From NCBI GenBank assembly GCA_001772865.1, contig MEVD01000015.1, positions 9,084-73,083 of the forward strand: 64,000 bases of DNA. Reading direction: 5' to 3'. Below are positions 3,655 to 40,493 of this stretch, piece by piece. The notes under the pieces were generated by a model that had not been told where the DNA came from, searched no databases, and was given only the letters and a program-made list of their open reading frames with translations. This stretch comes from a candidate division WWE3 bacterium RIFCSPHIGHO2_02_FULL_38_14. Its GTDB lineage: Bacteria; Patescibacteriota; WWE3; UBA101185; UBA10185. The translations under genes were made by a program, and so were the position numbers. The stretch's first letter is position 1, and each line of letters opens with the position of its first letter.

Positions 3655-3692
3655 TACTATTTTAACTTGATATATCGTGATATTATGATTAA

Positions 3693-4391
3693 ATGGCTAC
3701 CGGTTCGCTATTTATAATTTCCGGTCCTATAGGAAATCTGGAAGATATAACTTTAAGGGCTATATCTACATTAAAAACATTAGATTACCTGTTGTCGGAA
3801 GATACAAGAGAAACAGATAAAATACTTTCAAAATTCGGCCTAAAAATACCACAAATTTCTTACCGGGACGAAATTCACCTGAAAATATACCCTAAAGTAG
3901 TTGAAATGCTTGAAAACGGTAAAAATATCGGATTTATGACAGACTCAGGGACACCATTAATTTCGGACCCCGGTTACAAGCTTGTTTATCAATTGAGGAA
4001 TTCCAGCTATAAAATAGTATCTATACCGGGCCCCTCATCGGTTGTTGCTGCTTTAAGTATTAGCGGTCTCCCTTCCGACAAATTTATATTTATAGGTTTT
4101 CTTCCAAAAAAAGAAAACCAAAGAAAAGAAATACTATTTAAATACGGTGCTTTGGATGCTACATTGACAATTTTTGAGTCACCCTATAGGATAGTTAGAT
4201 TAATTTCCGAAGTCAAAGAAACACTGGGAAACCGCAGAATTTGTGTTGTTAAGGACTTAACTAAAGCTTTTGAGACAGTCTTAACTGGTAAAATCATTGA
4301 TATTGAAAATGAATTAAAGATTTTGCCTCAAAAGGGAGAATACATACTGTTAATTGCTAAAGAAGATATAAAAGTAAATAGAAAAGCGTGA
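3693..4391 (+). CDS. rsmI: 16S rRNA (cytidine1402-2'-O)-methyltransferase
   Basis: 232 aa tetrapyrrole-methylase-fold protein. LFIISGPIGNLEDITLRA...LLSEDTRET is the typical RsmI N-terminus. Confidence 0.8.
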   Translation: MATGSLFIISGPIGNLEDITLRAISTLKTLDYLLSEDTRETDKILSKFGLKIPQISYRDEIHLKIYPKVVEMLENGKNIGFMTDSGTPLISDPGYKLVYQLRNSSYKIVSIPGPSSVVAALSISGLPSDKFIFIGFLPKKENQRKEILFKYGALDATLTIFESPYRIVRLISEVKETLGNRRICVVKDLTKAFETVLTGKIIDIENELKILPQKGEYILLIAKEDIKVNRKA

Positions 4392-7968: not shown

Positions 7969-8343
7969 TTAAAAAATATAATTCCAAATTATAAGAAGAA
8001 AAACCAACAACGTAGTTATGGAAGCAGTTAGTACAAATGCCGCTGAAAGATCTTTTATTACTCTAACACCTTCGTGATGCTCTTTTACTAAATGATCAAT
8101 AAATTCCTCAATTGCCGTATTCATGATTTCAGCCGACAATAAAAATCCCAAAGCCAAAACTAAAACTGCCCACTCATATAACTTAATATTAAACAAAAGT
8201 CCCATTGAGACAAAAAATGATGCAACAACTACCTCAACTCTGAAATTTGCTTCATTCATTAACGCATGAATCAATCCTTTGAATGCGTATTTAAAACTAT
8301 TCATATGCCTTGCCGGGTGGTGGGACTTTAACAAAGGATCCAT
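7969..8343 (-). CDS. dgkA: Diacylglycerol kinase / undecaprenol kinase family
   Basis: 124 aa. ...ANFRVEVVVA....EIMNTAIEEFIDHL...HHEGVRVIKDLSAA aligns closely with E. coli DgkA. Confidence 0.8.
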   Translation of the reverse strand: MDPLLKSHHPARHMNSFKYAFKGLIHALMNEANFRVEVVVASFFVSMGLLFNIKLYEWAVLVLALGFLLSAEIMNTAIEEFIDHLVKEHHEGVRVIKDLSAAFVLTASITTLLVFLLIIWNYIF

Positions 8344-8392
8344 ATACTTAAATATAAACCTTTTATCTTAAATTTGCCATAATAATTACGCA

Positions 8393-9601
8393 GTGCTAGT
8401 ATCAAAAACTGAAATGATGAAAGTAGTGAACTTTGCAAAAAAACACAAGAAACTTTTAATTACATTGGCGGTAATAATAATATTAATATTAAGTACTCAA
8501 AGAAGAAGCAACAGCGTTAAACCTGTTCAGGTAGATCAGGTTAAATACAGGGAAGTTATAAAAAACATTACCGCTACAGGAGAAACTACCGTTAAAAAAG
8601 AATATTCTATCAGAGCTCCAGTTGGGGCTAAAATCCTGCAAATAATGAATTACAGCGGGGATGCTATTAATAAAGGCGATATAATTATAAAACTTGACGA
8701 ATCAAGCTTAAAATCATCAACCGAAACGGCATTCGCAGCTTACTTAACAGCAAAAGCTGCGGTAGATTCTTATGATGAACAGGTAGATTCTGCTAAAAGG
8801 AGTGCAGTTGATAAAAAACTTGTCCGGGATGAAGCTTGGAGGGAATATATGGCTGATAACGGAGAAGATAATAAACAAACATACAAAAATGCCGAAGCCA
8901 CTTATAAATCGGCAGTTTCCACACTTCAAACACTTTTAGACAAAAAGCAGTCATTAACCGAGACCCAAAATTCAACTTATTCCTCTTATCTTGTTTCGTG
9001 GAATAACTTAAACAATTCTCAAATAATGGCTCCCGAAAACGGTCTGCTTGCTTTAGAAGATCTTAATGCAGGAGACTTGCTGACTACAGGTGATAAGTTA
9101 TTCAGCATAGTTAGTGAAACCGGCATGGAATTTATAGCAGAAGTTGATGAAAATGATATTGACAGTATACAAATTAATAAGCCGGCAAATATAATCATTG
9201 ACGGATACGTAAATGACAAATTTGAAGGAACAATAACAAGAATAGACGCTCAGACACAAATAACAGACACAGGAAGCACAATCGTTGAGGTAGGAATCAA
9301 TTTAAATTTAAAAGGCAAAAGACCAATCCTTGGACTAAGCGGATCCGCGGATATTGAAGTAGGAAGAGAATCAGAAAAACTCTCAATACCTTATGATTCA
9401 ATAATATTTGACGAAGAAAAGAACTACGTATTTGTAGTTTTCGAGGATAAAGTTAAAAAACAAGAAGTGGAAATAGGTTTTGAGGGAAATGATTTTGTGG
9501 TTGTCCTGAAAGGTGTTAAAGAAGGTGATACTGTAGTTGTAGGAAAAGAAACTGAGGAACTTCAAGATGGATCAAAAGTCTCCTATTTTAAAACTGAATA
9601 A
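8393..9601 (+). CDS. Efflux pump periplasmic adaptor (HlyD/MacA family)
   Basis: 402 aa. N-terminal TM, long coiled-coil region, C-terminal beta-barrel/lipoyl-like segments. Immediately upstream of the ABC ATPase and permease. Confidence 0.7.
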   Translation: MLVSKTEMMKVVNFAKKHKKLLITLAVIIILILSTQRRSNSVKPVQVDQVKYREVIKNITATGETTVKKEYSIRAPVGAKILQIMNYSGDAINKGDIIIKLDESSLKSSTETAFAAYLTAKAAVDSYDEQVDSAKRSAVDKKLVRDEAWREYMADNGEDNKQTYKNAEATYKSAVSTLQTLLDKKQSLTETQNSTYSSYLVSWNNLNNSQIMAPENGLLALEDLNAGDLLTTGDKLFSIVSETGMEFIAEVDENDIDSIQINKPANIIIDGYVNDKFEGTITRIDAQTQITDTGSTIVEVGINLNLKGKRPILGLSGSADIEVGRESEKLSIPYDSIIFDEEKNYVFVVFEDKVKKQEVEIGFEGNDFVVVLKGVKEGDTVVVGKETEELQDGSKVSYFKTE

Positions 9602-10304
9602 TATACATAAACATTATCAAATGGGTGACAGCGATATTAGAGCTGTTGACGGAATAACCTTAGATATTTATAGAGGAGAATTTATTAGTATTCTGGGAAA
9701 ATCCGGATCAGGAAAATCAACTTTAATGCATATAATCGGTTTATTGGACCACCCAACAGAAGGCACCGTTAAATTTGAAGACAGAATTATGAGTGAATTA
9801 AAAGACCACGAATTGGCTGTTCTCAGAAGCGAAAAAATAGGTTTTGTATTCCAGGCATTTAATTTACTTCCAAGAACTTCTGCTTTAGACAACGTGATCC
9901 TTCCCACTCTATATAATAAATATATTTCCAAAAGACAGGGCATCAAAAAAGCAAACGAACTGCTTGAAAAAGTAAGCATGAAAGACAGAATAAAAAATAC
10001 TCCTGGACAGCTTTCGGGAGGACAACAGCAAAGAGTGGCAATATGCAGAGCTTTAGTGAACGACCCTTCATTAATTCTGGCAGATGAACCTACTGGTAAT
10101 TTGGATTCAAAATCTGGTCTGGAAATACTGAACTTATTACACAGTCTTCATGAAGTAGGAAAAACAGTAATAATAGTTACTCACGACGTAAACATATCCT
10201 CTATTACCGACAGAGTAATTAAATTGAGCGACGGTAAGGTTTTTGAAGATAAATGGCAGAAGCACGACGGAGAAGATTATTTAAATAATATGGAGATATT
10301 CTAA
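9567..10304 (+). CDS. ABC transporter ATP-binding protein (MacB/LolD-type)
   Basis: Walker A GKSGSGKST, ABC signature LSGGQQQRVA, Walker B LILADEPTGNLD, H-loop VTHD. Confidence 0.85.
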   Translation: MDQKSPILKLNNIHKHYQMGDSDIRAVDGITLDIYRGEFISILGKSGSGKSTLMHIIGLLDHPTEGTVKFEDRIMSELKDHELAVLRSEKIGFVFQAFNLLPRTSALDNVILPTLYNKYISKRQGIKKANELLEKVSMKDRIKNTPGQLSGGQQQRVAICRALVNDPSLILADEPTGNLDSKSGLEILNLLHSLHEVGKTVIIVTHDVNISSITDRVIKLSDGKVFEDKWQKHDGEDYLNNMEIF

Positions 10305-27358: not shown

Positions 27359-30300
27359 CTACTTTTCTGTGTGCGGACTTTCCCCATTACCAGAGGCTTC
27401 ATCAACGCTTTTTTTTGATCTACCTTTTAAAAGTCTTCTGGCATCAATTCCTTTAACAACAAATAGAGTACTGGCAATTACCACTGCCATTACAACGGCA
27501 GCAAACACTACGAAAATCATAATAATCAGAACCCGGCTTTTCGGCGAATAATTTGCATTAAATATTGCCGCAAGCTGTCCACCCAAAGGAGTAGTTGTGC
27601 CTTTGCTAATAACAAGGTTTCGCGACGTTGTTACTACCTGAGCTTCGGACCTTCCGCTTATTTCCGGTGAATACATTAAAGACACAGTCGCAGGCGGAGT
27701 TAGAAATTCACCTTCACTCACCACCCGCGCCTTATACGAATAACTAAATTTTCCAGTAGGAACACTGTACAACGACATTACTACTCCGTTTTGGGTATAC
27801 TCACGCACATAATAATTGTAGCCATAATTATAGTAATAATGAGTAATTAAATTCGAGTCGGATTTCTTTTCGTTATCGAATTTGTAATTTATAGGAACCA
27901 TGCCAGCAGGCAGCTGGTCTTCTAAAACTCCGTAACTTTCAGAATACGCCAGTCCTTCAACAATTAAATTAACATTTACAGTTTCGCCGACCGATAATGA
28001 ATAAGCGGGATTTTTGCTGTTTACATATTCTCTACTTATAGAAATTCCGTCTGATCTTTTTGATGTTTCAACTGCTGTTCTAAATTGATCCAGAACCATT
28101 GTGGAATACAACTGTCCGGTGCCTTCTTTATTAACTTTTAAATTTATTGCGTTTCCTTTTTTAATTCCCTTTAGATCTAAAGTATTTATTTTCTGCTTTG
28201 CGGATGTAACTGCTCCAGAGGAAATCACGTCATCGCCCAACATAACTTCATATTTAAAATCAGGATTCAGTTCACCGACAGATTTTGAATACTCAACCAG
28301 CGCCCGCATAACCTGGACAGTTCCAAAAGTGTTAGACCAGTAGTCGTGTTTTCTGCTGTTAGACAAATATCTTACTCCTTTAAAAATAGTATCTTTATCC
28401 ACATTAGCCATAATCAAAGCGTTTACTACCAAACCTGTTGAAGCATCTCTTGAACCGAACCTGTCTCCGGCACCACTTTCCCAGAATAAACTCTCTCCTT
28501 GTTTTACTGCTTTGCTCAATATTAATGAAACACCGTTTTTGGAGTTATCTTTGAAACCGTTTCTAATGTTCGCCATAACTCCATACGCAAGTACATCAGG
28601 AGTCATGTCATTACTCAAGCTCACAAAACTCTTTCCCTTATCCGAACCCATCACTGATAATGAATAAATCCTAATGGGATCCAATAACGAATTCGGCTGT
28701 GCATTTTCCAGATACATTTTGGAAGAAGTAAGTAAATCATCTACCGCTCCAGGTTTTAAAGTATCAAGCAAAACCAAATATTCCGCTACATATGAGGTAA
28801 TACCAACATCTGAAATCTTTGAGCTCCACCAACTCCACCCGCCGTCCCAATTCTGCATAGCCCTAAGCCTTTCCAATCCTTCGTCAATCATAGCGTCAGT
28901 ATTTTTTTCTTTCAAAGCTTCCGAAAGAATATCTGGATTACTGGCAGCAATTATTACGGGAACCAGTCTGCTGGTAGTTTGTTCAATACACCCGTAGGGA
29001 TAGTTAACCAAATATTTCATAGAGGAAAGCATCGATCCGGTTAAACTCGAAGATAAGAACAATTGATAATTTGATTCTGATTCTAAAACGTCTTCGGGGA
29101 TATTGATTTCATAAGATGCGGAGTCATATTTAGTTGAAGCGGTTTTTTCTTTATAACCGAAATTTTTAATTGGGAGCTCAACTGTTATGGTATCGGAATC
29201 TTCTTCATTTTCAGTTGAAACAGCCGAATAAGTAAATTTGGTTTTTTCGTTAGCGAACCCGGGAATATAATCCCAATAAATCTGTTTAACACTATTGGAA
29301 CTTATTTGAACCGGATTAGTTAAGCCACGTAAAGGAAGCTCCCTTGATCTGCTCAAATCATTACCGCCATTTTCCTCAACTTTCAGTGAAACTTCAAAAG
29401 TCGAATCATTGTCGGTGTAATTTTGAACCAAAGACGACATTACCATTTTATCTCCCACTCTCGCCAGATTCGGATGGATTGGCCTTACAATAACGTCTTT
29501 TGTAACCACAATTTCTTTTGTGGACTGCCCAACCTGTGTTTCACGGGTATCCGCTATGTCGGAAATTACCCAGGTCGTCAAATTATCGGGCAGTTTAACC
29601 GTAACCGTAGCCTTGCCGCTCTCATCGGTCTTTAAAGAAGGATTCCAATAAGCAGTATCTTTAAAAACGGTTCTGGGAGCTGATGTACCTCCTTTGTCAT
29701 TATGTACCCATACTCCACCGGCAAAATAAGTGTGGTAATTCTCAACTTCCAAGTTATAAACAGTAACACTGTCCAATACCCATTCCACCGATCTCACTTC
29801 CGCACTGCTTCCGTCCAATCCCAAAAGCAAGTCTCCCGTGTCAATATTTCCGGCGGTTTTCCAAGTGTCATTAATTCTTAAAACATGTTCGGGAGTTACT
29901 TTTAAGTCGCCGTTAATAATTAAATATCCTTCAACATCAGTTTTGTGGACATTTAAAACTTTGGCTTTAACCAATTCCCCCGAATCATAGCTCTTTCTGG
30001 TTAAAACATACTCACCGGGTTCAACTTCTGAAATATGTTTAAACACATTTCCTTCAGTAAGAACTAATGTATCTCCGGTAAAACACCCCCCGTATCCGCC
30101 GGCGGCATCCATGCTGATACTCTCCAAAGAATTTGAAAATCCCGTCTCGTTAAATCTTTCCGACCAAAAAGCGTCAAAAATCTTTCTGCCATCAGGAGGA
30201 AAAAGCTCGAAAAGTGCTTTATCTACAATCCACAGCGCCGTATCAGCCGAAACAGGCCTTCCGTTATTATCTTTGGTTTCCACCTGTATCTCAACATTCT

Positions 30301-32638
30301 CTCCCGGACCAAATTTCTCATCTTCGGTTCTGATTTTAACATTAAGCTTTTTCGACTCCGCCGGAACCGAAATATTTAAATACTTGCTCTCAAATTTCGA
30401 TCCCGAAAATATTCCCACATTTACAAAAATGTTCGGCATGTCAGTTTCCTCAAGTTTCAGCTCAAACACTTCTGAAGGCTTAGAAATATGCATTACCTGA
30501 TACCTGTTTACATAATTCCTGTGAAAAGAAATAAAGGCGTCAGTATTTATTTCCCTCGAAGAAATTAAGAGCTTCACGGTATCACCGGGCTTGTACTCTT
30601 TTTTATCCAACTGCATTTCAAATGCCTGAGGATTTTCCGAAGAATAAAACGGATACCTGTCATCATAAACCCACGAAAAAAATGTTTTTTCAAGAGTATT
30701 GCCGGCTTGGTCGGTGGCGGTAACTTTAAATCTGTAAGAACCCGGAAGATCAGGAGTAATCCTAAAACTCACATCACCTTTTGAATTTGTTTTTTCAGTC
30801 ACGTTTGCTATAGGATCCACCCGCATTTCATATGTGGGGTATTTTGACTCCGGTTTTTTAACTTCCACCCAATATTCCCGCGTCACCTGGGCATTAACTT
30901 GCACACCTGAAACATTAGAATCCCTGTAGGGAAATAATATTAGGGGAAGATCCAGTGGCTGATTGATTCTGTTAGAATACGAATATTCATCGCTTCTGAA
31001 AATTCCAAAATTTGCCGGATAGACTAAAATATTTCTTTGATCAGTGCTGGGATTGCCCGATCCGTCGTCGACCGTGGCCTCAAAAACATATATCTTCGGA
31101 TCAGGAGATTTTAAAGTAATTACATTAACGTCTGTTTCGCCGTTTTCATCCAAAAATATACTACCTTCAACTATTTTGTTCCCCGAACTGAACCAATACC
31201 CGTACCTGTAGTCGCTCTCGCTGAATCTTCTGGAATCGGAATAATATTCATATTCATAAATATCGTGGGCATAAACGGTATACGTTACAGAAACTCCGCT
31301 CAAAGGCTGCCCTGAAAAATAATTTCCTTTTAACTTAAAGTCAAATATATCGCCCGCAACCGCTTCGGTGATGGGAGTATCAACTTCAATAAAATATTCC
31401 GGCTTCCTGAAGTATTCAACATTAATATAAGCATAATTAACATCCGGCGAACCTGCGGCATTAATCATAATTGTATAGTTTCCTGTTTTGGTTTTTTCCG
31501 GAATCAACGACTCACCAAAAACCGTGCCATCGCCCGAAATATTTAGCCGTTCGTTGTAAATTATATTTTCGTTCTCATTCCAACCGTAATAAATTTTTAC
31601 ATTGGCCGCACCCTGTGGGATTGAATATTTGGCATCGTTATCCGACCTAATAATAGATTTAAAGTAAATGGTATCTCCGGGCCTGTAAATCGGTCGGTCA
31701 GTGAAAATAAAATATTTTGAATTCTTTGTTTTTTCCTCATACCCCGTCCAGCTCCATCCCCAGTTCAATGATGTAAGGTTCATAGGAATAAACGAAACAC
31801 TGCCACCTGATTCCGCAACCGCCAGATCCGCCCGCTCATTATAACTTGTTGTAGAAATTCCCTGGGCATCAAAACGGTCTTCATCGAGCTTTTCTATTCT
31901 GTTCAACAGGTTATAAGTGCGCACAACCCCTTCAGTAATGACCTTTTTGCTTTTATAATTTTGCCCCCAGAATATAAATTCGTTTTCGCCCTCGGTAGAC
32001 ATAACTCCGAAATTGCTCACAACGGCAAATGACTGTTTGTTTAATCCGCCGATATTTACATCAACCAGCCAGATCCCAGGCTTGCCCGAAGGCAGGTTTA
32101 CAGTTGTAGAAGCGCTTTTTACATCTGTAACATTCAGTGAAAATGAGCTCGCTTTTTCCAGACCGGATGTGCTGAGGCTTTTATCTACCTGATTAAACTC
32201 TTTGTCGTGTATCAAAAAGGTTAAAAGATTATTTGTGCCGGCATTATACAAATCCACCGTAAGCTTGCCGGTGACATTTTTAATATTTATTTCAATCTGG
32301 GGATTTTCAAGATCGCTGAAATTAATTAAACCCTGCATTCCACCGTAATAAAACTGTTCTCTGAGTGATTCGATTTTGCGGATGCCTATTTCGGGAGGAA
32401 TTTCTTCCGTACTTGCTAAAACCGCTGAATCACCCGCACTGCCGGGCTCAAATGCAACAGGCTCTTCCAGATTTTCCTGAGCAGTCTGCAAATTTGTTAA
32501 TTTACTTTTAAGTTCCGCGTTTCGGGCTAAACGGCTATTCTGTGATAAACCATCTAATTTAACGGTCTTAAAAATAAACAATCCGGAAAAAACAATTAAT
32601 AATAGCGAGAAATAGGTTATTAAGATCTTTTTAGGCAT
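27359..32638 (-). CDS. Alpha-2-macroglobulin family protein (thioester-containing), TM-anchored at both termini, with Hint/BIL domain inserted at the bait-region position
   Basis: 1759 aa. N-terminal TM/signal. Thioester motif YPYGCIEQTTSRL about aa 1217. TED-like MQNWDGGWSWW. Post-bait motif PRTVFKDTAYWNP. C-terminal TM IIMIFVVFAAVVMAVVIAS. Hint domain about aa 855-983. Confidence 0.85.
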   Translation of the reverse strand: MPKKILITYFSLLLIVFSGLFIFKTVKLDGLSQNSRLARNAELKSKLTNLQTAQENLEEPVAFEPGSAGDSAVLASTEEIPPEIGIRKIESLREQFYYGGMQGLINFSDLENPQIEINIKNVTGKLTVDLYNAGTNNLLTFLIHDKEFNQVDKSLSTSGLEKASSFSLNVTDVKSASTTVNLPSGKPGIWLVDVNIGGLNKQSFAVVSNFGVMSTEGENEFIFWGQNYKSKKVITEGVVRTYNLLNRIEKLDEDRFDAQGISTTSYNERADLAVAESGGSVSFIPMNLTSLNWGWSWTGYEEKTKNSKYFIFTDRPIYRPGDTIYFKSIIRSDNDAKYSIPQGAANVKIYYGWNENENIIYNERLNISGDGTVFGESLIPEKTKTGNYTIMINAAGSPDVNYAYINVEYFRKPEYFIEVDTPITEAVAGDIFDFKLKGNYFSGQPLSGVSVTYTVYAHDIYEYEYYSDSRRFSESDYRYGYWFSSGNKIVEGSIFLDENGETDVNVITLKSPDPKIYVFEATVDDGSGNPSTDQRNILVYPANFGIFRSDEYSYSNRINQPLDLPLILFPYRDSNVSGVQVNAQVTREYWVEVKKPESKYPTYEMRVDPIANVTEKTNSKGDVSFRITPDLPGSYRFKVTATDQAGNTLEKTFFSWVYDDRYPFYSSENPQAFEMQLDKKEYKPGDTVKLLISSREINTDAFISFHRNYVNRYQVMHISKPSEVFELKLEETDMPNIFVNVGIFSGSKFESKYLNISVPAESKKLNVKIRTEDEKFGPGENVEIQVETKDNNGRPVSADTALWIVDKALFELFPPDGRKIFDAFWSERFNETGFSNSLESISMDAAGGYGGCFTGDTLVLTEGNVFKHISEVEPGEYVLTRKSYDSGELVKAKVLNVHKTDVEGYLIINGDLKVTPEHVLRINDTWKTAGNIDTGDLLLGLDGSSAEVRSVEWVLDSVTVYNLEVENYHTYFAGGVWVHNDKGGTSAPRTVFKDTAYWNPSLKTDESGKATVTVKLPDNLTTWVISDIADTRETQVGQSTKEIVVTKDVIVRPIHPNLARVGDKMVMSSLVQNYTDNDSTFEVSLKVEENGGNDLSRSRELPLRGLTNPVQISSNSVKQIYWDYIPGFANEKTKFTYSAVSTENEEDSDTITVELPIKNFGYKEKTASTKYDSASYEINIPEDVLESESNYQLFLSSSLTGSMLSSMKYLVNYPYGCIEQTTSRLVPVIIAASNPDILSEALKEKNTDAMIDEGLERLRAMQNWDGGWSWWSSKISDVGITSYVAEYLVLLDTLKPGAVDDLLTSSKMYLENAQPNSLLDPIRIYSLSVMGSDKGKSFVSLSNDMTPDVLAYGVMANIRNGFKDNSKNGVSLILSKAVKQGESLFWESGAGDRFGSRDASTGLVVNALIMANVDKDTIFKGVRYLSNSRKHDYWSNTFGTVQVMRALVEYSKSVGELNPDFKYEVMLGDDVISSGAVTSAKQKINTLDLKGIKKGNAINLKVNKEGTGQLYSTMVLDQFRTAVETSKRSDGISISREYVNSKNPAYSLSVGETVNVNLIVEGLAYSESYGVLEDQLPAGMVPINYKFDNEKKSDSNLITHYYYNYGYNYYVREYTQNGVVMSLYSVPTGKFSYSYKARVVSEGEFLTPPATVSLMYSPEISGRSEAQVVTTSRNLVISKGTTTPLGGQLAAIFNANYSPKSRVLIIMIFVVFAAVVMAVVIASTLFVVKGIDARRLLKGRSKKSVDEASGNGESPHTEK
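29699..30075 (-). other. Hint (Hedgehog/intein) domain, bacterial-intein-like, embedded in the A2M ORF
   Basis: Block A CFTGDTLVLTEG (Cys1 codon 30073..30075), block B KVTPEHVL (TxxH), blocks F/G VYNLEVENYHTYFAGGVWVHN (Asn codon 29699..29701). The +1 residue is Asp (DKGG), so canonical splicing is not expected. Confidence 0.8.
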
Positions 32639-32748: not shown

Positions 32749-33669
32749 ATGACTAAACACCTGACACAAGAAGAAGCTGAACGAATAAATCCCGATGTAG
32801 TGGCTGAAAAACTAAGGGAAGATCATGATAAAGCTATAGAGCTATTAAAAGCTGCGGGGTGCCGCCCTGAATCAACATCACCAAACGAAATCAGAAAACG
32901 GCTGATACTGGAAGCACTTCCCGAAGGGTTTCTGGAAGAACTCCAAGGATACATACCCTATTATTATAAGAAAGAAGAAGAAATATTTGGAAAAAAACAC
33001 AAATTCGAAACAGAAGTAGAACGGAAAGAATTTGAAAAACAGCTATTAAGGGGTGCGCTTTTTGAAATGCTTGTCCAGTACGACAAAGAAATTACACCTC
33101 CCCCAAACGAAACGGCAATGGAAATACTGGGAATAATGCAAAATCCCGAAGTGTTCGGATTGGAAAAAACCATCGGGTATAAACGAAATCCCGATGAAAC
33201 TTACGTAGAAATAGATGAAAAAGGACAAATTTTTATTAAAGTAATAGGCGAGGCTAAATTAGGGCATGTGGACGAAAGATTTTTGAGCCAGATGGAAAGT
33301 TTTGACGAAAACCTTCAGGCTATGGCTAATGTCATAAACAAAATGACCACACAAGAACTACAGGAGCACGGACTAGTACACCTGGCAACCAGAAGTGCAC
33401 AGATAGACACGGAATTTTCGGACGCCGCCCAACAAGAAAGGCCAAAAACACTGATATTGGGAGACGGAACCTACGGACACACCAAAGTATTAGCTATACC
33501 TGCCGACAGACTGCAGGATTTTGAATCTATGATGAAATACGAGCATCAAAACGAAACCAACAGGGAAAGATATATCGAAATAATGGGGGATGTAACGGTG
33601 AAAAGATCGGCTTTTAAAGCAAGAGAAGTAGGAGATATGGCCGACGGGCTTTACGAGAAAATGTTTTAA
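32749..33669 (+). CDS. Hypothetical protein
   Basis: 306-aa acidic soluble protein. Divergent from the A2M gene. Confidence 0.45.
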   Translation: MTKHLTQEEAERINPDVVAEKLREDHDKAIELLKAAGCRPESTSPNEIRKRLILEALPEGFLEELQGYIPYYYKKEEEIFGKKHKFETEVERKEFEKQLLRGALFEMLVQYDKEITPPPNETAMEILGIMQNPEVFGLEKTIGYKRNPDETYVEIDEKGQIFIKVIGEAKLGHVDERFLSQMESFDENLQAMANVINKMTTQELQEHGLVHLATRSAQIDTEFSDAAQQERPKTLILGDGTYGHTKVLAIPADRLQDFESMMKYEHQNETNRERYIEIMGDVTVKRSAFKAREVGDMADGLYEKMF

Positions 33670-33722
33670 ATTCCATTGACTCGATGAGAATTTAGACTGA
33701 AGATTTTGAAACTGCCGGGTTT

Positions 33723-33731
33723 TGGTATAAT
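33723..33731 (+). promoter_or_regulatory. Extended -10 promoter element (TGgTATAAT) upstream of tRNA-Gln
   Basis: TG-n-TATAAT at 33723..33731, about 26 nt upstream of the mature tRNA 5' end. Confidence 0.45.
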
Positions 33732-33757
33732 TTACGCGTTACTAACACAGATATTAA

Positions 33758-33831
33758 TGGGGGATCGTCTAATGGTAGGACACCAGGTTTTGGACCTGGG
33801 TATTGGGGTTCGAATCCCTGTCCCCCAGCCA
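33758..33831 (+). tRNA. trnQ: tRNA-Gln (anticodon UUG)
   Basis: U1:A72 acceptor TGGGGGA/TCCCCCA and discriminator G (typical of bacterial tRNA-Gln), anticodon stem CCAGG/CCTGG, loop TTTTGGA, T-loop TTCGAAT, CCA. Confidence 0.85.
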
Positions 33832-34135
33832 GAATAGGAACCCATAGCAGTCCGTTTCCTATATATTTCTTTTGATCACTGATAAAACCCGTTAGTTTAA
33901 AATTTAATTTTTCAAAACCAAATTCCGAAAACTTAAAAACTGGTTGCGTGTTTCAATAAATTGAATTGACATGACCTCACACTTACTCTACAATCAATAT
34001 AAGTACAAACATTATAAGAAATAGTTTAATAGCTTTCTATACGAATTTAACAAAAACTAATAGAGATATAGTTTCTGCACTTTTAAATATTAATTTGACT
34101 AAATAATTTTTTTTAGCATTATTGTTCATTAATCT

Positions 34136-34188
34136 CTCGGGAATTGAATTGTCAAGAAGATATGCTTCTTGATAGCTTTATTCCCGAG
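34136..34188. other. Nested perfect hairpin at the AT-rich to GC-rich transition
   Basis: Outer stem CTCGGGAAT/ATTCCCGAG (9 bp) encloses an inner palindrome TCAAGAAG-atatg-CTTCTTGA (8 bp). Confidence 0.6.
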
Positions 34189-34304
34189 GGTATGGGGGTC
34201 CGAGTCATAATTAAGACTCATACAACGTACCTCCCTTCCAGTTTCGACTGGATGAGCCCAAAAAACACGGACAAGCGTCTCCAAACCAGATGCTGCTAAT
34301 AGGG

Positions 34305-34551
34305 CATGAATTGGTTCCAGGAATGGACCGACTAGCCCGAGTCAGCGAAGAGCCATCAAAGGCATATGCGCTTTGATGGTATCCTCACGTGAATACGCGT
34401 GATGAGCTGGTTTGATTCGTGAGTTGACAGGACCGCGAGCGATCCGCGGGGTATAAAGTGAGTGCCTCTCTCTAACAGGGCAGAATAGAGGGAGTATTGA
34501 TTTCTTATATCTGGGTGACATGAATTGGTTCCAGGAATGGACTAACTAGCC
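34305..34551. repeat. Pair of 33-bp direct repeats (CATGAATTGGTTCCAGGAATGGAC[C/T][G/A]ACTAGCC) 214 bp apart in an ORF-free GC-rich segment
   Basis: Copies at 34305..34337 and 34519..34551, 31/33 identical. The surrounding 34189..34880 has no ORF of at least 60 aa on either strand and many local hairpins. Confidence 0.7.
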
Positions 34552-34904
34552 ACCCAGAAACAGAGAGATCAGCCATAGGTCGTTTAACTGTCTGTTTAAT
34601 CGACTTAAACATTTTCACAGACTCGGGTGAATGACTGGTAAACATTTACCTTGATGAGGGCTTACCCTTCTTCTTTCCAGGGCAGGGAGGAAAAAGTATG
34701 CTGTTGCCACCTGATGTTACTTAGATGGAGTAACAGCTTGGAGATGTCACCGGATAGGTAGAATTGATTTTCGAAACGTCTGCAGCGTTTGGAGAATTAG
34801 TCTACCCAAGGGTACGTGTTTACCCGTCCCTTCCGAAAGGGAAAAGCCAAAATTAGGTATACACCGTTCTGTGCCAACGTTTGGCACTATATGTGAGGAT
34901 AGAA

Positions 34905-35387
34905 ATGAAACGTTTGTATCTCCCACTAGTCATTGCGCTTCTCACAGCCATGCTCGTGGCTCCCGTGGCCATGGCCGCTGGTCCCGATCACGACAACAAC
35001 AACGCAAAGGCCAACGCCCCCGGTCAAGTCGCGAAGAACTCCGAAGACACCGAGGACAATGGTTCGACCTACGCTCCCGGCGTTCTGGCCAACGAGTCGG
35101 AAGACCCCGACGACAATGGCTCGGATTTCGCCCCCGGCCAGCTGAAGAAGGCTGAGGACGACACCGTCACCGATGCACCCGTCACCGACTCTACCGGCGA
35201 CAATTCCGACGGCGACAACAACAACGCAAAGGCCAACGCCCCCGGTCAAGTCGCGAAGAACTCCGAAGACACCGAGGACAATGGTTCGACCTACGCTCCC
35301 GGCGTTCTAGCCAACGAGTCGGAAGACCCCGACGACAATGGCAAGACGTACGCTCCCGGCCTGCTGAAGAAAGCAGAGCCACGCTAA
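34905..35387 (+). CDS. High-GC secreted repetitive acidic protein (D/N/E/G-rich, YAPG motifs)
   Basis: ATG at 34905 with GAGGA SD. Signal peptide MKRLYLPLVIALLTAMLVAPVAMA. The gene is about 63% GC against about 33% for the window. A 43-aa unit is repeated twice. The track ORF 34881 starts at an upstream TTG. Confidence 0.5.
   Translation: MKRLYLPLVIALLTAMLVAPVAMAAGPDHDNNNAKANAPGQVAKNSEDTEDNGSTYAPGVLANESEDPDDNGSDFAPGQLKKAEDDTVTDAPVTDSTGDNSDGDNNNAKANAPGQVAKNSEDTEDNGSTYAPGVLANESEDPDDNGKTYAPGLLKKAEPR
34991..35342. repeat. Two near-identical 130-bp direct repeats inside the GC-rich gene
   Basis: 34991..35120 and 35213..35342 differ at 1 position (ctggcc vs ctagcc). Confidence 0.8.
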
Positions 35388-35401
35388 GCGATCTGCCGCT
35401 T

Positions 35402-35452
35402 CCCGGTCCTCCAGTTCTTGTCACATCAATGATACAAGACTGGAGGGCCGGG
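35402..35452 (+). terminator. Long GC-rich hairpin downstream of the GC-rich gene (terminator-like, no U-tract)
   Basis: Stem CCCGGTCCTCCAGT / ACTGGAGGGCCGGG (13 of 14 bp) with a 23-nt loop containing its own TCTTGT..ACAAGA pairing. Begins 15 nt after the stop codon. Confidence 0.5.
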
Positions 35453-35541
35453 CGAACTATAAAATAACACTTAAAAAAATTAACTCCAAAATGTAGATAC
35501 TTTGTTAAAATAAGCACATATTTTAATTTAATATTTAAATA

Positions 35542-35871
35542 ATGAACAACTATGAAATAAAAGGTGAAATATTTACTTTTTTCGCAGCACTGTTTTTAGC
35601 ATTAAATACTATACTTGGTAGATATTTTGCTTTACAAATAGCACCATTATTACCATGGTTTTCCAGAAACGTAATTAATTTTCTGATTTTACTCACATTA
35701 CTCAAATTATATAAACCAAAAGGTTATATAAAGATTAATAAAAACGATTTAGCAAAGATTTTCTTAAGTGGAATTTTCTTTACATTCTCCAAAGAGCTGG
35801 CGAACTTCTTTGAAAATTTAATGGAGATGGAAAAAGAAATACAAATAGTTCTCTCTGCTCGATTTATCTAA
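35542..35871 (+). CDS. Small hydrophobic ORF, possibly a remnant of a degraded membrane-protein gene
   Basis: 109 aa hydrophobic. No motifs. Followed by 380 bp with only broken reading frames. Confidence 0.3.
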   Translation: MNNYEIKGEIFTFFAALFLALNTILGRYFALQIAPLLPWFSRNVINFLILLTLLKLYKPKGYIKINKNDLAKIFLSGIFFTFSKELANFFENLMEMEKEIQIVLSARFI

Positions 35872-36255
35872 TCCTGGATTGACTTCATGGATTTATTATA
35901 TACATTATAATTTCTTTTGTTAGTATTAATAATATAAATGACTTGTTATATTTATTACAAATATGATGGTAAATGCGGACTTGTTAGCTAACAGAATATA
36001 TTTTCTAAAAAATCTACCAGACGCATCTTAGAAAACAGTAATATTAAAATCTATTTTAGGACTATTTTTAGGAATCTTTCTGTCATTATTAATAAATTTA
36101 ACAATTTTTAGATTAATAGGATTAACAAATTTAGATTATTTAACAAGTCTTATTGTTAGTATATTGGTTCAAGATATTACACTATTAATAATAATTTATA
36201 TTTTATTCCATAACTCTTCAAAAGAAGACATTTTTAATTAACTATTTATAGAAAT

Positions 36256-36492
36256 TTGCGAAAAAGAGGGATTTTAATCGCTCTCATAATCAGATCTATA
36301 CTCTTTTCTATTTTTCATGGGAACTCAAGTATCCCTTTCTCATTTCTTTTTGGTATTGTCATGGCATTATATTACGAATTTACTAATAATTTCCCTAGAA
36401 CTGTAATAATTCACGCATTACACAATTATATAAATACTTACTATGCGACATTTTTACTTCTAGTTTTTTTCAAACAGCTTACAAATTTGTGA
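36256..36492 (+). pseudogene. C-terminal fragment of a CPBP (CAAX protease/Abi) family intramembrane protease
   Basis: Contains CPBP motif 2 (SIFHGNSS, FxxxH) and motif 3 (IHALHNYIN, HxxxN), but the EExxxR motif-1 region upstream is in disrupted frames. Confidence 0.45.
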
Positions 36493-36581: not shown

Positions 36582-37877
36582 ATGATTATTGTTGCTGCAA
36601 CAACATTGCTATTTTTAATATTTGTATTACTACAAAACTACTCGTATAGCCTTTTATTAAGAGGCGTGCCCTATAGAGTTCATGTTAATGGCATCCGGGG
36701 GAAGTCGTCTGTGACGCGCTATATCGCAGCAATCTTCAGAAAAGCTGATTTTATTACTTATGCAAAAACAACAGGTACGCAAGCTAGAATAATTGATAAT
36801 GAAGGTAATGAAAGTGAAGCACCAAGAAATGGCTCTCCTAATGTAAACGAGCAAATAACTATTATTAAGGACTTCATTAGCAAGGGTGCAAAGTCCATAG
36901 TTTTAGAATGTATGGCAATAAATCCGTTGTATCAAGAGTGGCTGGAAAATAAAGTTATTAAATCAAATATTTCAGTTATCACTAATGTAAGAACCGATCA
37001 TACAGATTATATGGGTGACACTTTGGAATCAATAGCAAAATCCTTAGCTACAACTATACCTACAAATGGCATATTAATTACGGGCGAAGAAAATCCGGAT
37101 ATTATAAATATATTAAAAAATAAATGCGAAAAAAATAACACAAGAATGATAGTTGCGGATAAATCAACTGTGAGCGATGAGGAATTAAATAATTTTGATT
37201 ATTATACCCATAAAGAAAATATTGCTATAGCTCTGGAAGTCGCTAAAATTATCGGTCTTGAGAGAAGTAAAGCAATGGAAAGTATGTTTAACGCTAACCC
37301 CGATCCCGGAAACTTTAAAATAAAATCCATAATGTATAAAAATAAGAACATAGCGTGGGCAAATCTTTTTGCAATTAACGATAAAGAAAGCTTTATTAAT
37401 GTGACAAAGGAAATATATTCACTTTATCCTAAATACACAAAAGTAATAATTCTAAATAACAGGTTTGACAGACCCAGCAGAGTAAAGTTGTTTACTGATA
37501 TTGTAACTAAAGAACACCCGGTTAATAAAATAGTAACGTTCGGTGATTTTGAAGAAGCAGTTAATAAATATGCTAAAAATAATGGTTTTAATTTAAATTA
37601 TGTTTTAAACCTTGGCAACTCCAGCAGAAAAAAACTAATTGAAGGCGAAGAACTATTTGACGCAATAATAGAGAGTATTAAGCAGAAAAATATTCTTTTC
37701 GTAGGCGCAATAAATACTCATACAGAACAGGCAGACAGGCTTTTAGAATGGATGTCTAATTTCGATAATAATTTACAAAAATTAGAAACCAAAGAAGCAT
37801 TAGTAAATACTTCTAATAATAATCTGTCATCTGGGAAAATTGGTAAAAATTTTAATTTAAGGGGGACACATGAGTAA
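36582..37877 (+). CDS. pgsB: PgsB/CapB-family amide ligase (poly-gamma-glutamate synthase-like, Mur-ligase fold)
   Basis: Family-diagnostic VNGIRGKSSVTRYIAA, AKTTGT.ARII, ECMAINPLYQ, ITNVRTDHTDYMG, TIPTNGILIT. Colinear with B. subtilis PgsB. Confidence 0.85.
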   Translation: MIIVAATTLLFLIFVLLQNYSYSLLLRGVPYRVHVNGIRGKSSVTRYIAAIFRKADFITYAKTTGTQARIIDNEGNESEAPRNGSPNVNEQITIIKDFISKGAKSIVLECMAINPLYQEWLENKVIKSNISVITNVRTDHTDYMGDTLESIAKSLATTIPTNGILITGEENPDIINILKNKCEKNNTRMIVADKSTVSDEELNNFDYYTHKENIAIALEVAKIIGLERSKAMESMFNANPDPGNFKIKSIMYKNKNIAWANLFAINDKESFINVTKEIYSLYPKYTKVIILNNRFDRPSRVKLFTDIVTKEHPVNKIVTFGDFEEAVNKYAKNNGFNLNYVLNLGNSSRKKLIEGEELFDAIIESIKQKNILFVGAINTHTEQADRLLEWMSNFDNNLQKLETKEALVNTSNNNLSSGKIGKNFNLRGTHE

Positions 37878-38847
37878 TCAAATAAACAGTTTGGAAATGT
37901 TAAGTTTAATTTTATTCATAGGAGTAGTAACTTCTTTAATAGTTCGAAGAAAAACGGGTATAAATCCAGGAGGCATAATTACTGCTCCATTTCTGGTATT
38001 AAGTTTTTATTATTCTTTCATTTGGGGCGTTACATTAATTATAATAAGCCTTTTGATTTATAAAATTTATAACAAATATTTACATAGTTTTTATTATGGT
38101 AGGACTCCGATGTACATCTATAGTATTATGTCCGTGCTGTTTGTATATGCAATTGCCTGGATATACGGCTATTTTAAAATCATCCCGGACTTTAATATTA
38201 ATTTCGTTTATGGTCTTATCCTACCCGCTATTCTGACAGTGGCATTAAGAAAACAAGGTGTGAGAAAGACAATGATTTACACTGCTATCACCGTAGTCAT
38301 AACAGCTTTAGTATCCTTGGTGATATTTTATATATCGAATAATATATTTCAATATAACTTCTACTATATGGAACAACTTAGAGCGTCAACAAACAATATT
38401 ACTTTAAGTACCGGCTTTATCTTATTCTTTGCCTCTATCATTTCAAGTTATGTAATTTACTATTTTACCAAAATAAAATCAGGAGGATATATAGTACTTC
38501 CGTTTTTAGCTTTACTTTTATTTAACCCAAAAAGCTTATTAATCTTTGTAGTTACGTTAATATTTATGCATCTACTGTTTAAGGCAATCAGACACTATAC
38601 CTTGATAGTCGGCATAACCAGGTATACATTTGTGCTTTGTACTGCAATATTAGTGGTTTGGGTAATAGAATCAGCTGGTTTGAGAATTGACCCCACGTTT
38701 TCACCGTTTTTAGGAGCGAATATATTTCCTGCTTTAGCCCTGGCATCAATAACAAACGATTTTTCAGTCCAAAAGGCACGAAATACTGCTCCAATGCTAA
38801 TTTTAAACTTGATAATTGTAGGAATAGTGTATTTTTTTGTCAGATAA
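37870..38847 (+). CDS. pgsC: Tandem-duplicated (fused) PgsC/CapC-like membrane protein
   Basis: 325 aa. Both halves individually resemble about 150-aa PgsC (half 1 GINPGGIITAPF...ILPAILTVALRKQG; half 2 SGGYIVLPFLALL...IFPALALASITNDFSVQKAR). Start overlaps the pgsB stop (ATGAGTAA). Confidence 0.7.
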   Translation: MSNQINSLEMLSLILFIGVVTSLIVRRKTGINPGGIITAPFLVLSFYYSFIWGVTLIIISLLIYKIYNKYLHSFYYGRTPMYIYSIMSVLFVYAIAWIYGYFKIIPDFNINFVYGLILPAILTVALRKQGVRKTMIYTAITVVITALVSLVIFYISNNIFQYNFYYMEQLRASTNNITLSTGFILFFASIISSYVIYYFTKIKSGGYIVLPFLALLLFNPKSLLIFVVTLIFMHLLFKAIRHYTLIVGITRYTFVLCTAILVVWVIESAGLRIDPTFSPFLGANIFPALALASITNDFSVQKARNTAPMLILNLIIVGIVYFFVR

Positions 38848-38923
38848 TCTGATTGCAGTAATCAGGTAAACGGTAATTCCCGGTTTGAGATACCTTTTAT
38901 TATCCCCGTGATAAAATCAACAT

Positions 38924-39691
38924 ATGAAAAAAGTTGTTATTGTAGCCGACGACTACGGATTGCTGCCATGCATAAACAGAGGAATTGAAAGGGCTTATCT
39001 GGAAGGATGCGTTACAGAGGCGTCGTTAATGATAAAAGCTGATTACGCTTTAGACGCTTTGAAAAATGCCAAAGTAAAAAATATTTTAAATATCGGCATC
39101 CACGTTGAGTTGATAGGGGATAAAGATCTTGGAAGATCAGTTAAAACCAAAGATTATATAGAGCTTTATAAAAATAAATCAGAAAAAGAAATAGAAAATC
39201 TGACTAGGCAGGAGCTTCATGAATTTGAAAAACTGGTGGGAAGACCGCCCACTCATATTACATCTCATAAAGGAATACACGGTAATTTTAAACTTTTAAA
39301 TGTATTAGTTGAATATGCTAAAAAAAACTATATTCCCGTTAGAAAGCCTAATACTGATTTAGAGGGTGACTTAGAGAAAAGCAATTATGCGGTTGAAATG
39401 ATTATAAAAAGGGCGGGCGTGCAAAGTACAGACCATTTAATAATACATATAAAAGGTAATGATTCTTCCTTAATTAAAGATTCAATATTAAGTGATTTAA
39501 AAAAAGTCAAAGATACTGAAACGGCTGAGATTTTAACCCACCCGGGATATTTTGACGCCACTCTGCTAAAGAGGAGTTCGTTAAATTACGAAAGATCCAG
39601 AGACTTGGATATGCTTATTGATCAAAAATTTATTAAATCGATAAAAGATTTAAGATTCAGCATAGTTAGTTATAAGCAATTGTATGACTAA
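38924..39691 (+). CDS. YdjC-family carbohydrate deacetylase-like protein
   Basis: N-terminus VIVADDYGLLPCINRGIERA matches the YdjC/ChbG DDFG...N.GI signature. His-rich downstream motifs. Confidence 0.7.
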   Translation: MKKVVIVADDYGLLPCINRGIERAYLEGCVTEASLMIKADYALDALKNAKVKNILNIGIHVELIGDKDLGRSVKTKDYIELYKNKSEKEIENLTRQELHEFEKLVGRPPTHITSHKGIHGNFKLLNVLVEYAKKNYIPVRKPNTDLEGDLEKSNYAVEMIIKRAGVQSTDHLIIHIKGNDSSLIKDSILSDLKKVKDTETAEILTHPGYFDATLLKRSSLNYERSRDLDMLIDQKFIKSIKDLRFSIVSYKQLYD

Positions 39692-40493
39692 GAAAAAACT
39701 GATTACTACAGCACACGATTTTGGTTTATCCGGCAGTGTAAACGAAGGTATATTATATGCAATTAATCATAAAAATAACATCATTAAAGAATATTCGCTG
39801 CTGCCTAACGCACCATACTCTAAACAAGGTGCTGAAATTGCAAAAGAATACAAAGAATTATCGGTTGATTTATGTATAGTTTTAAATAATTACGAACCTC
39901 TTCTTACTAACCACAAAACCTTAGTCGATCCCAATGGGTATTTTATTAAGGGTGACACTACAACCTGGAATTTTGAAGTTTTAGATAAATTTGATGAAAA
40001 TGAAATTACCAAGGAAATACATGCACAGTATGAGTGGTTCTTAAAAAACGTGGGAAGAAAACCTTCCGCCCTCGTTACTCAAAAATCCGAACATGGAGAT
40101 CCTAAAATTCTAATTCCCCTGGCAGACCTGGCTAAAAAAGAAAATCTCCCTATTCGCACTCCCGCATGGAAATGGTTCACCAACTACGCTGCACAAAGCT
40201 ACGTTGAAGAACAAGGCATAAAACACACCAGTAAAGTATTTGTCGGCTGCTATGATTGGAAAGGCAGGTTCGGATTGGACATTGAAAAAGACCTGGACCA
40301 ACTTTTCAACGAAGCTGAGGGCATTAGCGAGCTTTTGATATTTTGCGGATTTGCGGATGAAGAACTCTTTAAATTGAGCTCAGTCAATTGGCAGCGCGGA
40401 CAATATTTAAACATGCTGGAGCGTAAAAACGAAATTCTATTAAGGTTTAAAGAAAAATTCGATTTAATTAGTTATAAAGAGGTTTTTGTCTGA
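39684..40493 (+). CDS. Second YdjC-family deacetylase-like protein (divergent paralog)
   Basis: ITTAHDFGLSGSVNEGILYA N-terminus. Overlaps the upstream gene by 8 nt. Confidence 0.65.
   Translation: MTKKKLITTAHDFGLSGSVNEGILYAINHKNNIIKEYSLLPNAPYSKQGAEIAKEYKELSVDLCIVLNNYEPLLTNHKTLVDPNGYFIKGDTTTWNFEVLDKFDENEITKEIHAQYEWFLKNVGRKPSALVTQKSEHGDPKILIPLADLAKKENLPIRTPAWKWFTNYAAQSYVEEQGIKHTSKVFVGCYDWKGRFGLDIEKDLDQLFNEAEGISELLIFCGFADEELFKLSSVNWQRGQYLNMLERKNEILLRFKEKFDLISYKEVFV

Follow-up and report, generated by a model that had tools for sequence, protein, structure and literature searches.

The DNA considered here is a 64,000-nt stretch from candidate division WWE3 bacterium RIFCSPHIGHO2_02_FULL_38_14 (contig MEVD01000015.1), referred to below as the window, whose numbering is used throughout. 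About midway along it, between a tRNA-Gln gene and the remnants of two decayed genes, lies a segment rich in guanine plus cytosine (GC), termed here the island (34136-35455), together with the AT-rich spacer that precedes it (Table 1). The island is made up of two unlike halves, a structured non-coding RNA, which we call the leader, and an open reading frame (ORF) for a secreted repeat protein with foreign-type codons. The reading that we consider reasonably probable is that the two form one conserved transcription unit of the WWE3 chromosome, in which the long structured leader would be co-transcribed with the ORF.

The contrast in composition that first drew attention to this locus, in an earlier reading made from the letters alone (the sequence-only reading), is real: the island has 52% GC versus 34.8% (0.348) for the whole window, the richest 1300-nt segment of the 64 kb starts at 34155 (0.522) and the maximum elsewhere is 0.421, and within about 100 nt GC content falls to 0.245-0.27 left of 34130 and to 0.24-0.30 right of 35455. 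The hairpins placed at its two ends are genuine as well, with folding energies of -31.2 kcal/mol (z -7.6) for 34132-34192 and -35.3 kcal/mol (z -6.8) for 35396-35458, and so are the tRNA-Gln(UUG) gene 305 nt upstream of the first hairpin and the decayed CPBP protease pseudogene downstream, which contains an internal stop and a frameshift; the EamA-like fragment that lies in between had gone unmentioned. A GC content of 50-65% had been given for the island as a whole, and this fits its right half (ORF 0.60, 200-nt windows up to 0.635) but not the left 775 nt (0.46, range 0.40-0.52), while the reported bias toward GCC, GAC, AAC and CCC codons is present in the ORF only (GC content at third codon positions, GC3, of 0.73 versus 0.26-0.37 in neighboring genes), the rest of the island being non-coding. 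What had been overlooked is that more than half of the island does not encode protein and that the GC content of this part is best explained by RNA secondary structure, not by foreign origin. The GC richness of the island is then explained by two separate causes, base pairing of RNA in the leader and retained high-GC3 codons in the ORF. Such enrichment is expected of the leader because base-paired RNA in a genome of 33-35% GC must be enriched in G and C, and structured RNAs are conspicuous as GC-rich segments of AT-rich genomes (the GC-rich intergenic region, or GC-IGR, principle; PMC6429828). The lesson is that a sharp GC island beside a tRNA gene in an AT-rich genome is not automatically foreign DNA or a chimera.

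Table 1. Features of the tRNA-Gln locus (window coordinates; substitutions are those found in contig L005 of lineage B)
Feature	Position	Strand	Details
tRNA-Gln (anticodon UUG), encoded CCA	33758..33831	+	ARAGORN; Rfam tRNA 59.2 bits
AT-rich spacer	33832..34129	+	26% GC (0.258); holds promoter-like sites
Near-consensus sigma-70-like promoter	33966..33994	+	TTGACA, 17 nt, TACAAT; 11/12 consensus matches; predicted start ~34001
Weaker promoter-like site	34095..34122	+	TTGACT, 16 nt, CATTAT; 9/12; start would fall just before 5' hairpin
Structured non-coding RNA (leader)	34130..34904	+	~775 nt; 46% GC; ~30 predicted helices
5' bounding hairpin	34136..34188	+	22 bp
33-nt motif, copy 1	34305..34337	+	direct repeat D2; CATGAATTGGTTCCAGGAATGGACCGACTAGCC
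Hairpin CCGCG/CGCGG	34433..34449	+	G34437-C34445 to A-U
33-nt motif, copy 2	34519..34551	+	-19 kcal/mol, z -3.6
Hairpin GAGGG/CCCUU, then U-rich run	34656..34669	+	terminator-like scan match; 5-bp stem; G34658-C34667 to A-U
Shine-Dalgarno GAGGA(U) and ATG start	34895..34907	+	predicted to pair with 5' end of leader
Secreted acidic repeat-protein gene	34905..35387	+	160 aa; 60% GC; GC3 0.73
In-frame tandem duplication, 222 nt (74 codons)	34984..35378	+	repeat D1: 173 nt, 92% identity, spacing 222
3' bounding hairpin	35402..35452	+	20 bp; directly after ORF stop codon
EamA-like 109-aa fragment	35542..35871	+	Pfam EamA E 1.2e-4, below curated cut-off
Decayed CPBP (Rce1-like) protease remnant	35963..36492	+	Pfam E 3.5e-9 (last ORF), 2.3e-7 (stitched frames); three-frame translation

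The same junctions between island and flanks were found in at least eight further contigs from several samples, and these fall into two diverged lineages. Lineage A consists of the window together with L002 (MEVE01000010, a contig of the NCBI metagenome-assembled genome (MAG) of candidate division WWE3 bacterium RIFCSPHIGHO2_12_FULL_38_15), L003 and L004 (ANAN16 scaffolds of 527 kb and 56 kb, respectively) and the JGI contig L018, and across the locus these contigs match the window at 98-100% identity and their leaders do so at 100% (99.6% in L018), the number of repeats in the ORF aside. Lineage B consists of L005, L014, L019 and L020; here the 306-aa protein of the flank shares only 78% identity with that of lineage A, yet the order of tRNA-Gln followed by the island is unchanged. 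The record names suggest that all island-bearing records come from one type of aquifer community.

This recurrence bears directly on one of the two origins that the sequence-only reading had offered, namely that it arose through chimeric assembly or a join to contaminant DNA, an idea to which the abrupt change of composition at both ends and the provenance of the sequence, a short-read MEGAHIT contig (ERZ4903137 k141_1383204), lend some color. The junctions are nevertheless reproduced base for base in the NCBI MAG, the two ANAN16 scaffolds and JGI contigs, and they are found at 86-94% identity and with the same gene order in lineage B, where the divergence across both of them is continuous with that of the flanks. 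The island itself was found in no high-GC genome, and the loci of the distant homologs of the ORF have no nucleotide similarity to it. Because both junctions and their syntenic flanks recur in independent samples and assemblers and across a real evolutionary distance, a chimera is effectively excluded and its probability is practically nil. The locus is genuine DNA of the WWE3 chromosome that is vertically inherited in both lineages, the RNA and the ORF are inherited together, and the island looks ancestral to lineages A and B, with no presence/absence polymorphism between them.

The left half of the island is far more stable as folded RNA than expected from its composition. On the plus strand, 34130-34910 has a minimum free energy (MFE) of -285.9 kcal/mol versus -223.9 ± 7.7 kcal/mol for dinucleotide shuffles (z -8.06), with z-scores of -5.89 for the minus strand of the leader, -3.2 for the ORF part and +0.97 for the AT-rich spacer (33832-34135), which is thus unstructured. 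The fold does not belong to a recognized family, as only tRNAs pass the gathering thresholds of Rfam 15 in the whole 64-kb window, and a search of 33650-35600 at E ≤ 10 returned the tRNA plus chance-level matches to microRNA, small nucleolar RNA and small RNA (sRNA) models that are far under threshold. A group I or group II intron was considered and rejected since no such model matches, and nhmmer searches with the leader against the window and all of the other loci found no paralog, i.e., it is a single-copy element.

Comparison of lineages A and B indicates that the leader has been unusually well kept. It is 95.1% identical between them, with 38 substitutions and indels of 1, 1, 2 and 1 nt, and the AT-rich spacer is 94.0% identical, versus 81.8% for the intergenic DNA that separates the 306-aa gene from the tRNA gene, 81.5% for the first 81 nt of the ORF and 74% for the upstream alpha-2-macroglobulin (A2M) gene, and the proportion of differing synonymous sites (pS) in both neighboring ORFs is 0.44-0.52. 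The divergence steps from ~5% to ~18% exactly at the ATG of the ORF, which is attributed to selection on the RNA because a recombination breakpoint at this very position would be a mere coincidence. Given the lengths of the indels, no reading frame survives in the leader, and the longest one on its plus strand (34144-34299, with a TTG start) loses its stop at 34297 in lineage B and has no third-position bias. Since this ~775-nt RNA is maintained at 95% identity next to synonymous sites that are half-saturated, and since this is costly for a tiny genome, it is presumably important.

The substitutions that have accumulated tend, moreover, to spare the predicted base pairs of the plus strand. The structure was predicted from the window sequence alone and the lineage-B substitutions were then scored on it: 14 of the 24 that fall in MFE pairs keep the pairing and 10 break it, compared with 15.3 ± 2.5 broken when the substitutions are placed at random (P = 0.027), and the same test on the minus strand has no effect (P = 0.49). 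A joint consensus fold has 240 pairs, every one of which can form in both haplotypes, and includes two full compensations from G-C to A-U (34437/34445 and 34658/34667) and 11 one-sided changes that are compatible with G.U pairing; it contains 13 further pair types, versus 2-6 when the partners are slid by 1-3 columns. Because many of these changes are mediated by G.U pairs, the transcribed strand is taken to be the plus strand. The most conserved part, 34795-34888, has no substitutions at all and adjoins the ribosome-binding site of the ORF. The comparison of the two haplotypes hence shows the predicted leader to be non-coding, structured and constrained on the plus strand.

Several individual elements of the fold behave in the same manner. 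In the 5' bounding hairpin of L005, both U34149C (U.G to C-G) and A34172G (U-A to U.G) retain pairing, and in the 3' bounding hairpin a U-to-A and a G-to-U change move a bulge and the helix is kept at -30.6 kcal/mol; the latter hairpin probably serves as the end or a stabilizer of the modeled transcript. Within the leader, a 33-nt motif of the sequence CATGAATTGGTTCCAGGAATGGAC(CG/TA)ACTAGCC is present in two copies that are 214 nt apart, and both would fold into a closing stem, an AUGAA/CUA internal loop, a UUGGU/ACCGA 5-bp stem, a 1-nt bulge and a CCA-GGAA-UGG hairpin. The closing stems differ, being GGGC/GCCC in copy 1 and CUGGGUG/CACCCAG in copy 2, and the same architecture with different closing stems therefore amounts to covariation between paralogous copies. 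A CG to UA change in copy 1 of L005 keeps both pairs. The bulged U is replaced by A in both copies of lineage B (34315 and 34529), a concerted change at an unpaired position. Exact-pattern scans for the motif gave no match in species-representative genomes or in viral contigs and three matches in JGI metagenomes, all of them from the same two haplotypes, and a scan in which the stems were allowed to vary gave a single chance match inside a Bacteroidales response-regulator gene (L021). The UGAUGA stretches of the leader were considered as hammerhead or C/D-box elements, an identity that was rejected because lineage B does not conserve them and no Rfam model supports it.

The right half of the island has all the marks of a gene. 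The ORF is preceded by a Shine-Dalgarno sequence, GAGGA, 5 nt ahead of the ATG at 34905, and its product begins with a signal peptide (MKRLYLPLVIALLTAMLVAPVAMA, followed by AG) comprising MKR, a hydrophobic core and the AMA/AG site. The mature part is acidic and contains Asn/Asp/Ala/Pro/Gly-rich repeats of the form DDNG-x-x-[YF]APG-x-L, ends in LKKAEPR and is probably disordered. Relative to lineage B, the ratio of nonsynonymous to synonymous substitution rates (dN/dS) is 0.147 over 67 codons and 0.27 over 141 codons, and the indels of 3, 57 and 222 nt are all multiples of three. As judged from these alignments, the ORF encodes a protein that is under purifying selection, and it is as old in these genomes as the split of lineages A and B. 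Its codon choices are distinct from those of its neighbors, with AAG:AAA at 8:2 versus 18:113 and GAC:GAT at 17:3 versus 28:43, and the synonymous differences between the lineages mostly exchange G/C for A/T (27 of 34), which is compatible with an ongoing decay of high-GC codons.

The number of 222-nt units varies among nearly identical assemblies, from one in L002 (90 aa; 10001-10273) and two in the window to three in L003 (234 aa; 8159-8863), and this reflects either a true variable-number repeat or the collapse and expansion of repeats in short-read assembly. The ORF is not considered to be the target of a diversity-generating retroelement, there being no reverse transcriptase nearby and no adenine-specific pattern in the differences between its repeats.

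No Pfam or NCBIfam family matches the ORF product, even at E ≤ 5. A full phmmer scan gave E-values of 8e-6 to 7e-5 for P0009 and P0010, and a profile search found 76 proteins, a number to be read with the low complexity of the sequence in mind. By both searches the relatives outside WWE3 are solely signal-peptide proteins of 73-158 (mostly 80-95) aa with about three [YFW]APGQ motifs. These proteobacterial proteins, an uncharacterized secreted family of 75-95 aa that includes SAMN04488012_101150 of Palleronia salina, resemble the WWE3 protein in having a signal peptide, at least three spaced [YF]APG(Q) motifs, frequently with DDNG or SE ahead of them, and a C-terminal end rich in lysine, but the WWE3 proteins are more acidic, have a 74-aa tandem unit of variable copy number and are only 31-48% identical to them, an identity that extends over low-complexity repeats. 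The loci of the relatives are of high GC content (67.6% in Palleronia salina and 58-61% in metagenomic contigs), and no leader-like RNA was found upstream of the distant homologs, the loci L015-L017 being without similarity to it. In Palleronia the homologous gene lies 70 nt behind a histidine-kinase gene.

How the two halves might be expressed together is suggested by the surrounding signals. The near-consensus promoter in the AT-rich spacer, both hexamers of which are unchanged in L005, would drive a ~1.45 kb RNA from 34001 (or 34130) to ~35455, in which the leader with its ~30 helices would be followed by the Shine-Dalgarno site, the ORF and the terminal 20-bp hairpin. The -35 part of the weaker promoter-like site is not kept in L005 or L018. 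A scan of the plus strand gave no promoter-like site between 34123 and the ATG at 34905, and the only terminator-like matches within the leader are the lower 5' hairpin and the 5-bp stem at 34656-34669. It is because there is no promoter inside the leader and no convincing terminator that a single transcript is proposed; the co-transcription, the promoter and the cis-regulatory role are all inferred. The leader may stabilize the mRNA through its terminal hairpins. In addition, the consensus fold pairs 34125-34135 (UUCAUUAAUCU) with 34897-34909 (GGAUAGAAAUGAA), a helix that may gate translation by engaging the Shine-Dalgarno site and the AUG and would close the leader into a single domain. An action in cis on the secreted-protein gene, whether on mRNA stability or as a translational gate, is put forward tentatively, as something a little short of an even chance.

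A number of observations weigh against a single unit of this type. Two leader haplotypes were found in all of the data searched and the covariation rests on their 38 substitutions; a shuffle control of the pair counts (125/500) has no power with two rows, and 10 substitutions break pairs of the single-sequence MFE structure. Helices 1-2 of the consensus fold, which would sequester the Shine-Dalgarno site, are invariant in both lineages and hence give no covariation signal, and the 3' hairpin has no U-tract. The island of L018 lies directly beside a NUDIX gene and is without the strong promoter, at ~900 nt the leader would be of exceptional length among bacterial cis-regulators, and no such leader accompanies the proteobacterial homologs of the ORF. 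The spacer, although unstructured, is likewise conserved (94%), as are 140 nt of the EamA fragment (100%), and as these share the unusual conservation of the leader, part of its low divergence could be due to mosaic recombination between the lineages and not to selection on the RNA. The identical 140 nt of the EamA-like remnant (35711-35851) come right after 70 nt with 15 differences.

The leader is comparable to known long leaders and riboswitch-type regulators (GC-IGR, PMC6429828) in being GC-enriched, conserved, structured and located on the same strand immediately upstream of the gene that it would control, and it contains a possible Shine-Dalgarno-sequestering helix and a terminator-like hairpin. 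The leader differs from them in that it is ~5-8 times longer than typical riboswitches, contains no recognized known aptamer, and precedes a gene that encodes an uncharacterized secreted repeat protein, not a metabolic or transport protein, and that has homologs without any leader. If cis-acting, it would rank among the longest known regulatory leaders of bacteria, and the surface or secreted repeat protein under its control would be possibly relevant to an episymbiotic lifestyle.

The size of the RNA also raises the prospect that 34130-34904 is an autonomous large non-coding RNA, either RNA-only or part of a ribonucleoprotein particle in the manner of ROOL, GOLLD or OLE, with the ORF merely sharing its transcript or cassette. 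A length of ~775 nt, the number of helices and 95% identity against ~50% neutral divergence exceed what most cis-regulators need, the GNRA-type hairpin motif is conserved in two copies, and the conserved terminator-like hairpin with its U-run (34656-34680) could release a shorter RNA. As homologs of the ORF exist elsewhere without the RNA, the two are separable. OLE is located in an operon beside the gene for a small partner protein. ROOL, GOLLD and OLE share with the element a length of several hundred nt, many helices, a distinct composition and the lack of coding capacity, and a tRNA gene is 300 nt away from the element; ROOL and GOLLD, too, are frequently near tRNA islands (PMC12286853). 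However, it is below the gathering threshold of all Rfam 15 models, those of ROOL, GOLLD, OLE and raiA included, and matches none even at E ≤ 10; it is single copy with no paralog in the window; there are neither phage- nor prophage-type genes among the precomputed Pfam hits within ±10 kb and no match in viral contigs, in which it is unlike ROOL and GOLLD; and in the collections scanned it is confined to one narrow WWE3 clade. Unlike ROOL, GOLLD and OLE, it also runs straight into the ribosome-binding site of an ORF, and the invariant stretch 34795-34888 that abuts this site fits a role in cis. An autonomous RNA is for these reasons unlikely, though were it correct, a new class of large RNA would be added.

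A more specific proposal, that this is the first member of an ornate RNA class of ~0.8 kb restricted to the candidate phyla radiation (CPR)/Patescibacteria, that it acts in its own right, for instance as an RNA-only assembly or as a ribonucleoprotein scaffold built on the duplicated GGAA-hairpin motif, and that it travels with the variable repeat-protein gene as a hairpin-bounded cassette at the tRNA-Gln hotspot described below, is a long shot. To our knowledge, CPR bacteria, which have tiny genomes, have provided almost no experimentally studied RNAs. From two haplotypes, the RNA can be described as a candidate for a new large structured RNA or for a giant leader of a CPR bacterium.

The foreign-type codons of the ORF bring up the second origin that had been offered, a recent horizontal acquisition at a tRNA locus. 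Between lineages A and B the synonymous substitution rate (dS) of the ORF, 0.67-0.88, is about that of the flanking 306-aa gene, 0.87, and on the basis of this equality with a core gene the unit predates the A/B split, so that the acquisition was not a recent one. A transfer of the whole 1.3 kb from a high-GC donor, with integration at tRNA-Gln, was considered as well. It would account for the GC3 and the alien codon choices of the ORF, for relatives outside WWE3 that are solely secreted [YFW]APGQ-repeat proteins on contigs of 58-68% GC, e.g., in Palleronia salina, and for the adjoining pseudogene remnants, but it is at odds with the composition of the non-coding 60% of the island, which at 46% GC is unlike the loci of the homologs and fits RNA structure, and with the 31-48% identity, over low-complexity repeats, of the proteobacterial homologs. 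The age given by dS, the lack of an integrase within 10 kb and the absence from the window of any repeat of the tRNA 3' end likewise count against it, and we consider this reading somewhat unlikely, even with the insertion hotspot described next on its side. For the ORF alone, an old transfer from a high-GC proteobacterium followed by incomplete amelioration is plausible and would be the simplest account of its codons and relatives.

That the 3' end of tRNA-Gln attracts insertions is apparent from the other contigs. The tRNA gene is 100% identical in L005, and its terminal CAGCCA is followed by five different sequences, in the window, in L005, in L007/L009, in L008 and in L012. Within lineage C (L007/L009, L008 and L012) the 306-aa gene is 99.9-100% identical and three unrelated sequences come right after the CCA, with breakpoints (equivalent to window position 33831) at 3501 in L007, 2262 in L008 and 1125 in L012, and at 3508 in L005. 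In the latter a 1.8-kb cassette (3509-5319) encoding a 158-aa protein and a Mannosyl_trans2/PMT_2 mannosyltransferase is inserted between tRNA-Gln and the spacer, and has CAGCCAAATAG on its left flank and CAGCCAGAATAG on its right, i.e., a repeat CAGCCA(G)AATAG of the tRNA 3' end; no recombinase is visible in this 7-kb contig. The suggestion of an attachment (att)-like duplication at tRNA-Gln is thus right for the locus, because of the repeat around the L005 cassette, but does not hold for the island, as a search that allowed up to 3 mismatches turned up no second copy in the window. Nor is there an integrase or recombinase among the called genes within ±10 kb of the island. The pattern of breakpoints points to a genuine and very active insertion hotspot at the tRNA-Gln 3' end in this WWE3 population, and exposes it in a group whose mobile-element biology is poorly known. 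As in other tRNA-linked islands, variable DNA starts exactly at the tRNA CCA in relatives, one cassette carries a repeat of the tRNA 3' end and the ORF is of atypical composition; unlike them, the island of the window lacks an integrase and an att repeat, and it is present in lineage A and lineage B alike. It has the look of a resident sequence into which cassettes insert.

The same contigs were used to consider whether the unit is itself a non-autonomous mobile cassette that is bounded by the two hairpins and moved by a recombinase encoded elsewhere. In L018 an island that is 99.6-99.7% identical starts at ~34104 after an opposite-strand NUDIX gene instead of tRNA-Gln and the spacer, there are strong hairpins within 30 nt of each end, and a 20-nt inverted repeat (I3) joins 34104-34123 and 35463-35482. 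Yet L018 is the only alternative context, on a 1.7-kb contig that is possibly misassembled, the AT-rich inverted repeat has not been kept in lineage B, each genome carries one copy, no transposase is present, and the right-end context is the same in all other loci except for a 170-nt deletion in lineage B. A mobile cassette is accordingly highly improbable, and the L018 junction could be either a recombinant or mobile context or a misassembly. In L018 1-600, the first 20 nt of the NUDIX junction carry lineage-B variants.

Three more specific candidates for mobility were rejected. The inverted repeat was not accepted as the terminal repeat of a miniature inverted-repeat transposable element on account of its AT-richness and lack of conservation. 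A mobile right boundary at 35467 in lineage B proved to be the deletion into the same EamA fragment: L005, L014 and L019 join 35467 to 35637 and so lack 35468-35636, which shortens this fragment. The 3' hairpin is not an integron attC site, as it has no GTTRRRY (R) boxes and no integrase accompanies it.

The genes around the locus are of varied types. On the minus strand, 27359-32638 encodes a 1759-aa A2M-like protein with MG2, A2M_BRD, A2M, TED and bMG10 domains, into which a Hint/intein-like module is inserted (Pfam PT-HINT and Vint; CFTGDTLVL...VHN) that is kept in the lineage A contigs. Downstream of the decayed EamA and CPBP genes, 36582-40493 is a capsule or surface-polymer cluster comprising a CapB-like gene with a Mur-ligase domain and a CapC gene, both of poly-gamma-glutamate synthesis, followed by two adjacent YdjC-family genes. 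Nine tRNA genes are dispersed within 12037-62508, all on the plus strand and all with an encoded CCA.

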